A stretch of DNA of 58,164 nucleotides from Myxococcota bacterium (GTDB taxonomy: Bacteria; Myxococcota_C; UBA6777). Shown in pieces: positions 52,029 through 58,164 of the stretch. Position 1 is the stretch's first letter. Each line of letters starts with the position of its first letter. The notes beneath the pieces are model-generated. The model was given only the letters and a program-made list of their open reading frames with translations, was not told where the DNA came from and did no database searches. Position numbers and translations under genes: made by a program. The stretch spans positions 1 through 58,164 of the forward strand of contig JAKLKB010000028.1 in NCBI GenBank assembly GCA_023150835.1, given 5' to 3'.

Positions 52029-53132
52029 ATGACCCAAACCCAACAGGATTTCTTGCCGATCAATGGCACAGACTACATCGAATTTTATGTTGGAAACGCC
52101 AAACAAGCCGCGCATTTCTACAAAACGGCCTTCGGCTTCCAATCGGTCGCCTATGCCGGACCCGAAACAGGCATCCGCGATCGCGCTTCTTATGTCCTGC
52201 AACAAAACAAGATCCGCCTCGTCCTCACCACTCCGCTCCACCCCGAAGGCGAGATCGCTGCGCACATCCAACGCCACGGCGACGGTGTCAAGACCCTTGC
52301 GATGTGGGTCGATGACGCCACCGCTGCTTGGAAAGAAACCACCACACGCGGCGCTCGCTCCGCGATGGAACCCACCACCCTCAAAGATCAACACGGAGAA
52401 GCCCGTCTATCGGGCATCCACACTTACGGCGACACGCTCCACCTGTTTGTCGAGCGAAAAAACTACAACGGCCCCTTTCTACCCGGCTTTGAAGCATGGA
52501 AAAGCCACTACAACCCCACCGATACGGGCTTGCTCTATGTCGATCACTGCGTCGGAAACGTCGGTTGGGGCGAGATGAATCAATGGTGTGACTTTTACCG
52601 CAACGTCATGGGCTTTCAACAGCTTGTTTCCTTCGATGACAAGGACATCTCCACCGAATACTCCGCACTGATGAGCAAGGTCATGTCCAACGGAAATGGC
52701 CGCATCAAGTTCCCGATCAACGAACCTGCCAAAGGCAAAAAGAAATCCCAGATCGAAGAATACATCGACTTTTACCACGGGGCGGGCGTCCAACACATCG
52801 CCGTCGCCACGGACGATATCGTCTATACCGTCACCAGTCTCCGCGATCGCGGCGTCGAATTCCTGTACGTTCCAAGCGCCTACTACGACGATATCCTTGA
52901 TCGCGTCGGCCCGATCGAAGAAGACCTCGCCCCCTTGCGAGAACTCGGCATCCTGATCGACCGCGACGAAGATGGCTACCTCTTGCAGATCTTCACCAAA
53001 CCCGTCGAAGATCGCCCCACTTTGTTTTATGAGATCATCCAACGCAAAGGCGCACGCTCCTTCGGAAAAGGCAACTTTAAGGCGCTTTTTGAGTCGATCG
53101 AACGCGAGCAAGCACGCCGTGGAAACCTCTAA
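52029..53132 (+). CDS. hppD: 4-hydroxyphenylpyruvate dioxygenase
   Basis: YVGNAKQAA, DHCVGN, KFPINEP, GVQHIA, LLQIFTKP, FYEIIQR, FGKGNFKALF. Confidence 0.97.
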   Translation: MTQTQQDFLPINGTDYIEFYVGNAKQAAHFYKTAFGFQSVAYAGPETGIRDRASYVLQQNKIRLVLTTPLHPEGEIAAHIQRHGDGVKTLAMWVDDATAAWKETTTRGARSAMEPTTLKDQHGEARLSGIHTYGDTLHLFVERKNYNGPFLPGFEAWKSHYNPTDTGLLYVDHCVGNVGWGEMNQWCDFYRNVMGFQQLVSFDDKDISTEYSALMSKVMSNGNGRIKFPINEPAKGKKKSQIEEYIDFYHGAGVQHIAVATDDIVYTVTSLRDRGVEFLYVPSAYYDDILDRVGPIEEDLAPLRELGILIDRDEDGYLLQIFTKPVEDRPTLFYEIIQRKGARSFGKGNFKALFESIEREQARRGNL

Positions 53133-53145
53133 TCCCAACCCCCCC

Positions 53146-53442
53146 TTGACAACGCCCCAACCACCGTGGCGCGTCTCGATCCAGTTTTGCACAAAATGCC
53201 GATGGCTATTGCGCGCCGCTTGGCTTGCCCAAGAACTCCTCACCACCTTTGAAAACGATCTGCACGAAGTCGCTCTTTGTCCCGCAGATTCCGGCACTTT
53301 TGATGTCTTCCTCAACGGCTCTTTGCTGTTCTCTCGCGCACAACAACAACGCTTCCCCGAGCCCCGCGAGATCAAACAAGCCCTCCGCGATATCATCGAT
53401 CCACACCGTTCTCTCGGGCATTCTGATCGCCCCACCCCCTAA
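53146..53442 (+). CDS. Rdx (SelT/SelW/SelH) family protein
   Basis: CTKCRWLLRAAWLAQELLTTF, FPEPREIKQ..RD.IDP.RSLGHSD; start (TTG) uncertain. Confidence 0.88.
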   Translation: MTTPQPPWRVSIQFCTKCRWLLRAAWLAQELLTTFENDLHEVALCPADSGTFDVFLNGSLLFSRAQQQRFPEPREIKQALRDIIDPHRSLGHSDRPTP

Positions 53443-53533
53443 CACACTCTCTAAGAGAGGTGTGTTCGAAGGATTGCTGCGATCCGCTGTAGACGCCCGA
53501 TGGTTGGGCAGCCACCCCCGACTGCGCCCGCCT

Positions 53534-53563
53534 CCGATCTGCGGATCATGATCCGCAGATCGG
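53534..53563. other. Perfect 30-bp palindrome
   Basis: CCGATCTGCGGATCA|TGATCCGCAGATCGG. Confidence 0.8.
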
Positions 53564-53767
53564 CCCTGCCCTCTTACTTTTCGCAAAAAGATGATTTTCC
53601 TTTAAGATCGGCTTATTAGAGCAACGATCTTGGATCTCGTTGGGACTTTTGCGATTGGCCTCTCGCCATTCTTTTGGCTTTTGTGGTATACGGTCATCCC
53701 GATCTGTATCATGAGATACACCGCGTGGCAAAAGCCTTACGCTCACGAAAGCGAGAAGGAGTGGGAA

Positions 53768-54040
53768 GTCAACGACCCGCCCCGAAAGGGAGCGGGCTTG
53801 TGAGTCTTGCCCCGTTGACCCGCCCCCAGAAGCCGAGGGAAACTTCGGTGGAGGAAACGTTGAGAGAGAATAGATAGGCACAGTCGGATGCTTCTCCAGT
53901 CCGACGCATCTGCGGGGCACGTCGACAGTCCTTGGGTAAGCCTGCTTCGTGTCTTCAAAACCTCTCGTTCAACTGGGCAAGGAGAACTTGACCGAAACGC
54001 AAGTTTCGAGAACACCCCGTCAACACGGGGAAAGGTAACG
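53768..54040 (+). ncRNA. omega-RNA (HEARO-like) scaffold of IscB
   Basis: GTCAAC...GTTGAC first stem, ACGTT..GAATAGATAGGCAC, GGATGCTTCTCCAGTCC, GCAAGGAGAAC..GCAAG hairpin directly upstream of iscB. Confidence 0.8.
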
Positions 54041-54045
54041 TCTTC

Positions 54046-55371
54046 ATGGCACAAAACAGAGTCCTCGTCTTGGACGTTGACCATCAACCCCTGATGCCTT
54101 GTCATCCTGCTCGCGCTCGTCAGCTGCTCTCGGAGGGCAAAGCCGCCGTTTGGCGGCGTTTTCCCTTCGCCATCGTACTCCAACAACCCACCACTTCTCA
54201 CACACAACCCCTGCGCTTGAAGGTCGATCCCGGGAGTCGCACCTCTGGGCTCGCGGTCGTCGCCACTTACCAACGCGGACAGGTCTGTGTGTTCGCCGCA
54301 GAACTCCAACATCGCGGCATGGCGATCAAAGAAGCTCTCTACAAACGTCGTGGTGTTCGGCGTTCGCGGCGGTATCGCCACACACGTTATCGCAAACCGC
54401 GCTTTCTGAATCGAAAACGAAGAAAAGGCTGGCTGGCCCCCAGTTTGGAAAGTCGTGTGCAAAACGTGGTGCAGTGGGCCAAACGGCTGAGGCGTTGGAT
54501 GCCTTTGACGGACTTGTCGATGGAATCGGTGCGTTTCGATCTGCAACGCTTAGAGAATCCAGAGATCGAGGGCGTCCAATACCAACAAGGCACGTTGTTT
54601 GGGTACGAAGTGCGGGAATATCTGCTGGAAAAGTGGGGAAGAAAGTGTTTCTATTGTGAGGCCACAGAGGTGCCTTTACAAATCGACCACATCATGCCTC
54701 GCTCGAAGGGGGGGACGGATCGTGTGAGCAACCTGACGTTGGCCTGTGCAGCGTGCAACCAGAAGAAGGGCAACACGGACGCGAAGACGTTTCTAGCCAA
54801 ACAGCCCTCAAAATACGCAGCGTTGAGGGCTGCATCCAAGAGAGGGCTCTCAGATGCGGCGGCGGTCAACAGCACACGAACGGCGTTGTGGAAACGGTTA
54901 TGTGGGTTGGGTATCGCGTTGGAAGTGGGCAGCGGCGGGCAGACGAAGTACAACCGAAGCGTGCAAGGGTATGCGAAAACACACTGGCTCGATGCCGTGT
55001 GTGTCGGCGTGTCGGGAGAACGTGTGCTCGTGGAGGCAGAGCAAGAAGTGCTGGAGATCAAGGCGATGGGACGGGGAAGTCGACAGATGTGCAGAATGGA
55101 TCAGTACGGGTTCCCCCGAACAGGCCCGAAAGCAAGACAAAAGAAGGTGTACGGTTTTCAGACCGGAGACATGGTGGAGGCGGTGGTTTCGAGAGGAAAA
55201 AAAGCAGGTCGATACGTAGGACGGGTGGCGGTGCGAAGTACGGGCAGTTTCAACATCAAAACCCGAAGTGGCACAACACAAGGCATTTCTTACAAACATT
55301 GTCGTATCCTTCAACACACAGACGGATACGCCTACACACGAAGAAAGGACGGCGCTTCCTCCCCCCTCTAA
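54046..55371 (+). CDS. iscB: RNA-guided endonuclease IscB
   Basis: PLMP domain (PLMPCHPARAR), RuvC-I DPGS, RRxRR bridge helix, RuvC-II ESVRFD, HNH (CFYC..DHIMPRSKGG..NLTLAC..CN), RuvC-III HWLDA, GFQTGD. Confidence 0.96.
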   Translation: MAQNRVLVLDVDHQPLMPCHPARARQLLSEGKAAVWRRFPFAIVLQQPTTSHTQPLRLKVDPGSRTSGLAVVATYQRGQVCVFAAELQHRGMAIKEALYKRRGVRRSRRYRHTRYRKPRFLNRKRRKGWLAPSLESRVQNVVQWAKRLRRWMPLTDLSMESVRFDLQRLENPEIEGVQYQQGTLFGYEVREYLLEKWGRKCFYCEATEVPLQIDHIMPRSKGGTDRVSNLTLACAACNQKKGNTDAKTFLAKQPSKYAALRAASKRGLSDAAAVNSTRTALWKRLCGLGIALEVGSGGQTKYNRSVQGYAKTHWLDAVCVGVSGERVLVEAEQEVLEIKAMGRGSRQMCRMDQYGFPRTGPKARQKKVYGFQTGDMVEAVVSRGKKAGRYVGRVAVRSTGSFNIKTRSGTTQGISYKHCRILQHTDGYAYTRRKDGASSPL

Positions 55372-55399
55372 AGAAGGGGGTCTCCGCGCCTTATCAACG

Positions 55400-56452
55400 A
55401 TGAGTATCTCTCTAGAGCAACCGACTTGGCTGGCCGATCTGATCCGATATACCCTCGAACACTACGATACGCAGGCCGCAAGCGCACGCGCCACACAACT
55501 CCCCGTAGACAACCGACGCGGTGTGGCTGCCATCTCGATGGCCCTCGAATGCCGCAACGTCTCGCAAGGTTTACCTGCCCTCTATCCTGAACTCTCCGAA
55601 GATCCCTCTGATTTTCCCTCCGTCAAATTCCTCTCCACCTTGCGCATCCAATCCGAAGTCGCTTTGGATGTCGCGGTCTCCCTTGGCCGTCCCTACGAAG
55701 GCCAACTCGCCCGCCTTGCCTTGTTGATGATCTGGTGGGCGGCCCTCGGCGAACTCGATCAAGCCGACGCCCTCGCCCAACTCTGGACACAGATCGCTCA
55801 AGGACATCGCGATGCGTCCGAGATCTCGGGCTATCTCGATAGCCACATCGAACCTCTCGGCGCACACCTCAAGTCCCGCGCTGTCCTCAAACCCGATCCT
55901 CTCCTCGCTCTCCCGATCAGCCAAGGCATCAGCTTCTTTGATATCCGCATGGCTGGACAACTCGCCGAAGCTCTCCACGATGACCAACAGCTCGAACGCC
56001 ACGAGATCGAGCGCATCATGATGCTCACCCAAAGCGATCGACTCCGCTTCATCGAAGCCACCATCGCCCTCGCTTGGTCCAACGGACTCCTCGAATCCGA
56101 AGAACGCAACCTGATCAAAAAACAGATCGAAGTCCTCAACCTCGACAAAAAGGACACCCGCAAACTTCTCAACGCGATGATCACCCCCGCCGTCCCGAAA
56201 GAATTTGTGCAATCTTTCTCCGATCCAGAGGTCGCAATGTTTGTTCTGCGCCAGCTTGTGATCGCCTCCATGATCGACGGCGAACAAGACGCCAAAGAAC
56301 GCAAGTTCCTCCAACGCACCGCCAAAGAGATGGGACTCAACGACACCCAATTCCGCCAGATCATGGAAGCCATGATGGCCTTCCTCGACGCCAACCGCGC
56401 CTCCATCGACGCGATGAAGTCCCAAAAGAAACGCACCCGCCCCGGCTTCTGA
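55400..56452 (+). CDS. TerB-like (tellurite resistance / DjlA N-terminal-like) domain protein
   Basis: ALAWSNGLLESEERNLI and ASMIDGEQDAKERKFLQRTAKEMGL motifs; ATG abuts the IscB element end. Confidence 0.7.
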   Translation: MSISLEQPTWLADLIRYTLEHYDTQAASARATQLPVDNRRGVAAISMALECRNVSQGLPALYPELSEDPSDFPSVKFLSTLRIQSEVALDVAVSLGRPYEGQLARLALLMIWWAALGELDQADALAQLWTQIAQGHRDASEISGYLDSHIEPLGAHLKSRAVLKPDPLLALPISQGISFFDIRMAGQLAEALHDDQQLERHEIERIMMLTQSDRLRFIEATIALAWSNGLLESEERNLIKKQIEVLNLDKKDTRKLLNAMITPAVPKEFVQSFSDPEVAMFVLRQLVIASMIDGEQDAKERKFLQRTAKEMGLNDTQFRQIMEAMMAFLDANRASIDAMKSQKKRTRPGF

Positions 56453-56662: not shown

Positions 56663-56700
56663 ATATCACACGATAGTGTACACGAAACGTCGACACGGTT

Positions 56701-56880
56701 TGCTGTGGCGGTCCTGTTCTTGGGCAGCCACAGGGGGCTGCCCCTACATAGGTCGATCACACCGTGTGCTGTGGCGGTCCTGTTCTTGGGCAGCCACAGG
56801 GGGCTGCCCCTACATAGGTCGATCACACCGTGTGCTGTGGCGGTCCTGTTCTTGGGCAGCCACAGGGGGCTGCCCCCATA
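56701..56880. repeat. 66-bp tandem repeat containing the REP hairpin (about 2.7 copies; partial copy at 57080-57116)
   Basis: Units start at 56701, 56767 and 56833; each contains GGGCAGCCACAGGGGGCTGCCCC. Confidence 0.9.
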
Positions 56881-57208
56881 GGCGTTAGGTTAAGCGCTTG
56901 TTGGCCCCCCCACCCCAGCCCTCCCCCGTGAACAGGGGAGGGAGCGAAAGTCGGAAGCAGCGGGGATTTTGTTTTTTCATGACACACGCTGTATGCAACG
57001 GGGGGATTGAGGGGGGGCGACAAAAGAAACGGCGATCAGGCTAGACTATCCGGTGTTTCCACCTTAACAAGGCGCGTATGGGGGCTGCCCCTACATAGGT
57101 CGATCACACCGTGTGCGGGTTTCGTACCACACCTACGCCGCTTGCTTTGGCCCGAACACGGGGTTTTTTGCCTATGGCATCACTCCAGTCCACACAGGAA
57201 ACAACACC

Positions 57209-57970: not shown

Positions 57971-57996
57971 ACCATCTCTTTCATTCTTAGAGCTTA

Positions 57997-58164
57997 TACG
58001 AAATCCGCTCGTTGTGTGATCGTAAAGACGTAGGGGCAGCCCCCTGTGGCTGCCCAAGAATACGTAGGGGCAGCCCCCTGTGGCTGCCCAAGAATACGTA
58101 GGGGCAGCCCCCTGTGGCTGCCCAAGAATACGTAGGGGCAGCCCCCTGTGGCTGCCCAAGAATA
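57997..58164 (+). repeat. Family A element end followed by a 34-bp tandem REP array (4 copies, truncated by the window end)
   Basis: TACGAAATCCG at 57997; GTAGGGGCAGCCCCCTGTGGCTGCCCAAGAATAC at 58030, 58064, 58098, 58132. Confidence 0.9.

Follow-up and report, generated by a model that had tools for sequence, protein, structure and literature searches.

An IscB transposon inserted at an ATGA start codon, between the ribosome-binding site and the ATG of a TerB-like gene, in a Myxococcota genome

The contig JAKLKB010000028.1 of a Myxococcota genome (assembly GCA_023150835.1), analysed here over positions 1 to 58,164 and referred to as the window, whose positions give our numbering, contains what by its sequence is a complete, non-autonomous ISC (IscB) transposon of 1,632 bp at 53768-55399, belonging to the N|ATGA group of the IS200/IS605 superfamily. 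It adjoins the gene of a TerB-like protein, here called the host gene. The source genome (G000; 7.56 Mb in 239 contigs, 93% complete) was compared with relatives G001 to G005; C with a number denotes a contig. An earlier reading of the window from its letters, the sequence-only reading, had named an IscB element with exactly these borders, and both its identity and its borders are upheld by Pfam, Rfam and structure matches and by the alignment of element ends. The locus comprises:

53752-53767, forward strand: predicted guide, the last 16 nt of the host 5' untranslated region (UTR), directly 5' of the omega RNA scaffold and containing the Shine-Dalgarno motif AAGGAG

53768-53992, forward strand: omega RNA (HEARO) scaffold; Rfam RF02033, 71.2 bits, E 8.3e-14, model positions 1-211 of 211

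54046-55371, forward strand: iscB, 441 aa plus TAA stop, an uninterrupted open reading frame (ORF) with PLMP motif, split RuvC, HNH and C-terminal domain

55351-55390, forward strand: subterminal imperfect hairpin at the other transposon end (left end in TnpA terms), with stems GGCGC/GCGCC and CCCCC/GGGGG

55391-55399, forward strand: last 9 nt of the element, TTATCAACG, ending in CG, placed by the right-end alignments

55400-55403, forward strand: ATGA, target site of the transposase TnpA and putative target-adjacent motif (TAM) of IscB; present in the empty allele of G002, its ATG being the host start codon

55400-56452, forward strand: host gene, TerB/DUF533-like protein of 350 aa; Pfam DUF533 1.1e-10 and TerB 6.3e-09, start common to the orthologs

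Read directly, the host 5' region closes with AAGGAG (53756-53761) and TGGGAA (53762-53767), the element opens at 53768 with GTCAACGACCC and closes at 55399 with TATCAACG, and ATGAGTATC, which includes the host ATG, begins at 55400, adjoining the element. The insert separates AAGGAG-N6 from the ATG of the TerB-like gene to the base and lies in the same direction as the gene; in this filled allele no GGAG, GAGG or AGGA stands 4-12 nt 5' of the ATG. The element lacks terminal inverted repeats, and its target is not duplicated, the left flank ending in GGGAA and the right flank starting with ATGA, and the termini, GTCAACG at the start and AACG at the end, fit the 5'-GT...CG-3' of N|ATGA ISC elements.

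The HEARO match covers the whole model, has its 5' end at the element end and lies upstream of iscB on the same strand; the omega RNA probably extends on to the iscB ribosome-binding site near 54030-54045. The scaffold begins at the transposon end that is called the right end in TnpA terms; below, left and right follow the window. The IscB protein matches Pfam RRXRR with an E value of 3e-69 (residues 6-182, profile 1-174 of 174) and HNH with 1.1e-12, as well as the solved IscB structures of TbaIscB (9k30, E 4.8e-48), HfmIscB (9k2z, 1.2e-31) and OgeuIscB (7xht/7utn, 3.9e-29). Its motifs, namely PLMP at residue 15, DPG at 61 (D61), ESVRFD at 160 (E160), DH at 214-215 and HWLD at 313-316, align with the corresponding segments of TbaIscB, and from the IscB literature we take DPG, ESVRFD, DH and HWLD to be the RuvC and HNH catalytic motifs. 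At the right end, the iscB stop codon sits in the loop of the subterminal hairpin. Because the energy of this hairpin is no better than that of shuffled sequences (z -0.21), its support is taken from conservation among copies: the outer stem reads GGCGC/GCGCC in some and GGCGT/ACGCC in others, a change on both sides.

The TerB-like protein, searched for in 40 relatives and in the source genome itself, is present in four relatives of the same family. In G002, a member of the same genus with a TerB-like protein of 85% identity, the upstream sequence reads ...CGAGAAGGAG, then 6 nt and ATGAGC, with no insert. The G002 homolog of the window's left flank stops 5 nt before the ATG and the lengths agree to the base; therefore, filled and empty alleles differ by the element alone. 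The flank holding the guide segment is conserved in this empty allele. The empty-site junction predicted by the sequence-only reading is thus found in a related genome with the same spacing, and the insertion between Shine-Dalgarno motif and start codon that it had described is confirmed by direct reading and by G002. In the more distant G004 and G003 (57% and 54% identity) the gene starts with ATGAG[C/T]AT, with AAGGAG or TAGGAG 8 nt upstream. Since they are kept in these orthologs and in G002, the start codon and the ribosome-binding site of the TerB-like gene are real; the same reading had allowed for a different start in orthologs, and instead even the distant ones share this ATG and ribosome-binding site. 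Some other assignments could be rejected. ATGA is not a part of the element, since empty alleles contain it, an alternative start of the TerB-like gene is ruled out by the same ATG in four orthologs, and an in-frame GTG at 55268, which lies inside the element and would add 44 codons, has no counterpart in the empty allele.

G001, whose TerB-like protein is 98% identical, shares the insertion and has both junctions, the left on contig C211, with a flank 100% identical over 628 nt, and the right on C14. The element before the TerB-like gene on G001:C14 is an internal-deletion derivative (53768-54127 joined to 54963-55399), and the left flank there is homologous not to the TerB upstream region but, at 86% identity, to G000:C202:11681-13121, a locus where an AAGGAG-type site precedes a GTGA start. 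Judging from these sequences, the chimera may stem either from recombination between two element copies or from a chimeric contig of a metagenome-assembled genome (MAG).

Empty alleles were found at three loci, namely that of the TerB-like gene and those of HPF and ActD. In the source genome, the HPF locus carries the element (left end C179:180, right end C225:36858); G001 and G002 lack it there and have AGGAG nine bases before ATGAAG. The ActD locus, too, carries the element in the source genome (left end C166:6880, right end C238:43906) and is without it in G001. For metK, orthologs were not found in G001 or G002, which are 86% and 64% complete, and there is no empty site to compare. At the ActD site (C166:6860-6880 versus G001:C18), the 6-9 bases on the junction side differ between filled and empty alleles, including a length difference, and the sequence further upstream matches near-perfectly. 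This difference could have arisen as the strains diverged, or it could be a scar left by repair once excision and cleavage had taken place.

The element has 31 matches in its own genome. Left-end homology starts exactly at 53768 in 10/10 aligned ends and in 16/16 found by pattern scan, and all 16 left ends open with GTCAA[C/T]GACCC, preceded by flanks that are unrelated; on the right side, homology ends either at 55399 or at the common ATGA. Among 22 right ends, 20 are followed by ATGA and one (C135) by GTGA, while one (C226:6591) is degenerate, with no recognisable end. The ATG or GTG after the right end opens an ORF of at least 60 aa in 16/21, which gives a positive answer to the question, raised with the sequence-only reading, of whether other copies also adjoin ATGA starts. 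The family profile begins at most 13 residues from the ATG in 5 of 13 scanned ORFs: position 1 falls at residue 6 for MetK (TIGR01034), at residue 1 for both HPF and YefM and at residue 10 for a bacterial microcompartment (BMC) shell protein, and position 2 at residue 13 for ActD. The other eight comprise three without a Pfam family and five with Pfam matches away from the N-terminus. Three more ORFs have signal-peptide-like starts by eye (C171:139, C100 and C54).

For comparison, 42.8% of 5,000 ATGA sites sampled from 37,020 in the genome open an ORF of at least 60 aa. A stricter null is given by ATGA sites where an insertion would be non-disruptive: outside a coding mask from our own crude gene caller (4,888 genes, 87% coding), 31.6% (1,663/5,262) open such an ORF. 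Against this background, 16/21 is a roughly 2.4-fold excess (binomial p 3.5e-5), and the start-codon excess is real but moderate. In the left flanks, GGAG, GAGG or AGGA ends 4-12 nt before the junction in 8/16, a motif found at 9.9% (3,668/36,993) of all ATGA sites and at 52.8% (1,170/2,216) of crude ATG gene starts.

Several further observations concern the copies themselves. The source genome holds a second, higher-copy ISC family, whose near-identical ends break the assembly: ends of it lie on C198, C171 and C100 (bases 1-139) and on C238 and C212 (last ~140), with left ends on C106, C145, C218, C166 and C220. Its single assembled full copy, C193:33982-35530, encodes an IscB only 33% identical to that of the window, and its right ends coincide with start codons, those of MetK, ActD and two lipoprotein-like genes. 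Internal-deletion derivatives occur at C135:2434-3340, C171:7156-8002 and C68:19092-19758; they keep the omega RNA and the first ~27 and last ~170 iscB codons, as riders on full-length copies in the manner of miniature inverted-repeat transposable elements (MITEs). The same type of deletion, with joints 54039>54993 and 54091>55044, is seen in contigs of the sequencing runs X3 and X17, from two independent studies. Before the HPF gene, two right ends stand in tandem, 89 nt apart (C225:36666-36858); ATGA comes after the first, and the terminal ~85 nt of the element are then repeated.

The start-codon position is also met outside this genome. A scan of one genome per species gave 25 loci, of which four were dropped (two from the close relative, two weak HNH-only matches). 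One of the 21 kept ends 8 nt after the stop. In 10 of the 21, a recognisable end is directly followed by ATGA, in one case GTGA, with an ORF of 136-575 aa. The hosts of these ten are MAGs of Myxococcales, Anaerolineaceae and Chloroflexi, a Tepidanaerobacteraceae MAG, Cupriavidus, Marinobacter ELB17, Vreelandella and Thiosulfatimonas, and the window IscB shares only 45-59% identity with copies from outside the myxobacteria. In 5/10, the N-terminus is anchored by full-length NCBIfam models: position 1 at residue 1 for dihydroorotase and for UDP-sulfoquinovose synthase, 17 at 21 for RecJ, 6 at 2 for a flavorubredoxin-like protein and 4 at 14 for a conjugal-transfer lipoprotein. At the Marinobacter ELB17 locus (L068), the element, with an IscB of 52% identity, ends in ...AAAATCG, followed by ATGA and a 375-aa ORF.

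In the IscB literature, the guide length is 16 nt. At the window locus, the guide would be the last ~16 nt of the host 5' UTR and the TAM would be ATGA, and the IscB complex would be expected to cut the empty allele at its translation start. Both the guide position and the ATGA motif, as proposed in the sequence-only reading, fit the family, 20/22 right ends adjoining ATGA. That reading had also given ATGA as the TAM of AwaIscB; the passages of PMC12660989 that deal with AwaIscB state no TAM, and published support for the motif comes from other systems. The passages of Kapitonov et al. (2016, PMC4810608) on ISC elements describe N|ATGA targets without duplication, 5'-GT...CG-3' termini and non-autonomous elements moved by a Y1 transposase. 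For GstIscB, passages of Meers et al. (2023, bioRxiv 10.1101/2023.03.14.532601) report that the TAM is identical with the TnpA target, TTCAT preceding the left end and reading ATGAA in the direction of iscB, that the omega RNA lies upstream of iscB, bounded by the transposon end, and that cutting of the donor joint leads to re-copying of the element. They further describe iscB elements as biased to the orientation of the upstream gene, with transcribed insertion sites helping to make functional omega RNA, and propose that the omega RNA relies on host transcription. A preference for NTGA is given for DtIsrB in the part of PMC9581776 that treats it, and target recognition in the superfamily is put at 4-5 nt only (passages of PMC4810608 and Meers et al. 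2023).

Taken together, an ISC transposon that inserted at N|ATGA, where the ATG serves the TerB-like gene as start codon, and that has been retained there, is very probably the best explanation of the locus; the element lies exactly between ribosome-binding site and ATG because the ATG of its target is a start codon. We propose that a Y1 transposase (TnpA), supplied in trans, would insert the element at N|ATGA. Read-through from the host promoter would then make the omega RNA, with the last ~16 nt of the host 5' UTR as its 5' guide, and the IscB-omega RNA complex would recognise the guide sequence plus ATGA, that is, the donor joint after excision or the empty allele. Cutting of either would force re-copying of the element by recombination. 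ATGA start codons would be the main class of targets that break no gene and are transcribed in the right sense for a guide, and copies on them would be retained, being able to make a guide and to defend themselves against loss. Expression of the host gene would continue from a second cistron, 28 nt beyond the stop of iscB.

Contigs from public sequencing runs bear on transcription to a limited degree. Part of the stretch is present in 20/24 listed runs from 8 studies, 8 of them recorded as RNA, and four runs were compared along the locus (X3, X17, X19 and X9); contigs from RNA libraries are no proof of transcription. A 175-nt RNA-library contig with zero differences bridges the left junction (53719-53893), and others extend from 55364 into the host gene, which lends weak support to read-through. 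In X3 and X17, RNA-library depth is highest over the omega RNA region and 53561-53734 has no contig, but contig depth cannot rank parts of a gene, gaps in coverage prove nothing, and we use neither as evidence. No contig of the four runs skips 53768-55399; since contigs drop rare variants, this does not imply that such molecules are absent.

Several observations weigh against the retention scenario. The HEARO score of 71.2 is below the Rfam gathering score of 83. Five of the 21 right ends precede ORFs of just 6, 7, 7, 30 and 32 aa, which are not gene starts, 11/21 loci in other taxa lack the start-codon pattern, and the null model rests on a crude gene caller and is rough. A simple scan of 53100-55500 found no sigma-70-like promoter, which is uninformative for this lineage. 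Finally, no intact IS200/IS605 TnpA is found in the source assembly, which is 93% complete and breaks at repeats, and none in G001, whereas G002-G005 have full-length Y1_Tnp genes. The source assembly does give two weak Y1_Tnp matches (23.8 and 22.9 bits): a fragment of 28 positions on C42, beside a 452-aa tnpB ORF, and a RAYT-like Y1 protein on C113. Current mobility in the source strain is unproven; the sequences point to recent movement, because the HPF and ActD insertions differ between the source genome and G001 and because near-identical ends break contigs.

With this in mind, the alternatives can be weighed. The sequence-only reading had expected translation of the host gene to be impaired, and an insertion that acts as a harmful knock-down, a transient deleterious allele with a largely silenced TerB-like gene, would agree with the lack of a GGAG-type motif before the ATG of the filled allele and with a stable hairpin just upstream of it. 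Yet the TerB-like gene is intact and under strong purifying selection. The source genome and G001, which both have the right junction, differ in this gene by 34 synonymous and 8 nonsynonymous changes (synonymous divergence dS 0.156, with a nonsynonymous-to-synonymous ratio dN/dS of 0.064); against G002, dN/dS is 0.127. Element parts differ from G001 to a similar extent (94.7% and 97.5% identity), which fits an insertion older than the split of the two, the alternative being a later spread by recombination. Moreover, metK, of which the assembly yielded a single copy, has this arrangement in front of it, as do HPF and ActD (for the latter two the next upstream stop is close by) and, in other taxa, recJ and a dihydroorotase gene, and the ATG of the TerB-like gene falls in an unpaired stretch of the predicted centroid fold. 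Translation of the host gene as a second cistron is plausible, and we consider a knock-down improbable.

The copy could also be an inactive relic, mobile once and now carried along without a working nuclease or guide. The missing TnpA in the source assembly and G001 would suit this, as would the many genome copies that are internal-deletion derivatives or end fragments and the presence of only three full RRXRR matches in the assembly. A relic is nevertheless unlikely in view of the uninterrupted 441-aa ORF with all nuclease motifs, the full-length omega RNA match, the HPF and ActD insertions that differ from G001 although the TerB-side flank is identical over 628 nt, and the high-copy, near-identical ends that break the assembly. 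Start codons might also be actively targeted by a transposase or nuclease that reads more than ATGA, such as a ribosome-binding-site context or single-stranded DNA. The ~2.4-fold excess over the non-disruptive null would favour this, together with a left-flank ribosome-binding-site rate (8/16) that equals that of crude gene starts and the recurrence of the habit across several phyla. But the left flanks share nothing beyond a loose purine-rich motif, the 5/21 ends here and the 11/21 loci elsewhere lie away from gene starts, published target recognition in the superfamily covers just 4-5 nt, and the excess is accounted for, with no need of a new mechanism, by selection for sites that are transcribed and non-disruptive, so that we hold active targeting to be very unlikely.

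How far this extends beyond the present genome is a separate matter. Start-codon landing may be a family-wide way of life of ATGA-type IscB/IsrB transposons, which would then be near-neutral 'UTR riders'; on this generalisation, we find the arguments evenly balanced. As their target and TAM include an ATG, retained copies would lie in the sense direction in a host 5' UTR, their guide would always be the ribosome-binding region, iscB and the host gene would be joined in an artificial operon, and the host gene could still be translated by virtue of the unpaired, A-rich bases with which the element ends. If true, this would account for the bias in orientation that Meers et al. describe.

Two sets of repeats and a further Y1 protein were noted in passing. 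A short intergenic repeat at window positions 53453-53515, upstream of the element, has 92 BLAST matches in its own genome and more than 40 in G001, and gave a weak, chance-level sX13 match in Rfam; it may be a repetitive extragenic palindromic (REP)-type element. The RAYT-like Y1 (HUH) transposase of C113, a 254-aa protein encoded at C113:53266-54030 (L038 1450-2214, minus strand) with a long run of IGQAQ-type repeats between its HUH and tyrosine motifs, may be the partner of this repeat. At 56690-56890 and 57990-58164, the peptide words GSHRGLPLR and WAATGGCPY are repeated in several frames, which by sequence is a DNA repeat, tandem or dispersed, flanking a steroid-reductase-like membrane ORF.

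Element type, N|ATGA target and homing logic are already published, and the start-codon position is the usual landing place rather than a special event. Start-codon landing itself was not found in the published literature searched, which did not extend to supplements, and the main text of Kapitonov et al. (PMC4810608) nowhere uses the terms 'start codon', 'codon', 'translation' or 'host gene' and so does not treat where the elements lie relative to host genes. The locus provides a clean natural pair of filled and empty alleles that fixes the element ends to the base, and it offers a predicted guide and TAM for an uncharacterised, compact (441 aa) Myxococcota IscB. In this genome and among the 21 loci from other phyla, ATGA-type IscB elements are very often located exactly at start codons, those of ordinary and even housekeeping genes included, and the genes show no obvious loss. 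If this is true in a full survey, it would give a simple reason why iscB elements have no omega RNA promoter of their own and point the same way as their neighbours; and gene callers may mis-start or extend genes behind such elements, if the habit holds generally.

Compared with known systems, the omega RNA matches RF02033 (HEARO) over its full length and differs in scoring below the gathering score. With the solved IscB-omega RNA complexes, the element has in common RuvC, bridge-helix and HNH homology, known here from sequence similarity alone; according to the abstract of PMC12660989, OgeuIscB differs in its TAM, NWRRNA. GstIscB/ISGst5 of Geobacillus stearothermophilus, as described in passages of Meers et al., is alike in omega RNA placement, in a TAM that equals the TnpA target, in the donor-joint logic and in orientation bias, a bias which those passages give by distance, without mention of start-codon landing. 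GstIscB has been established by experiment in a host with a working TnpA, whereas the window element is known from its sequence and no working TnpA was found in its source assembly. Similar in build are the ISC elements ISC2-1_MS (Marinobacter sp. ELB17), ISC2-1_HM and ISC1-1_MA, which, in the passages of PMC4810608 on them, likewise have one iscB gene, GT(CA)...CG termini and subterminal hairpins, lack terminal inverted repeats and target duplication, are inserted 5' of ATGA and are non-autonomous. The window element differs from them in its host lineage, its close relatives here being found in Myxococcota or Myxococcales MAGs.

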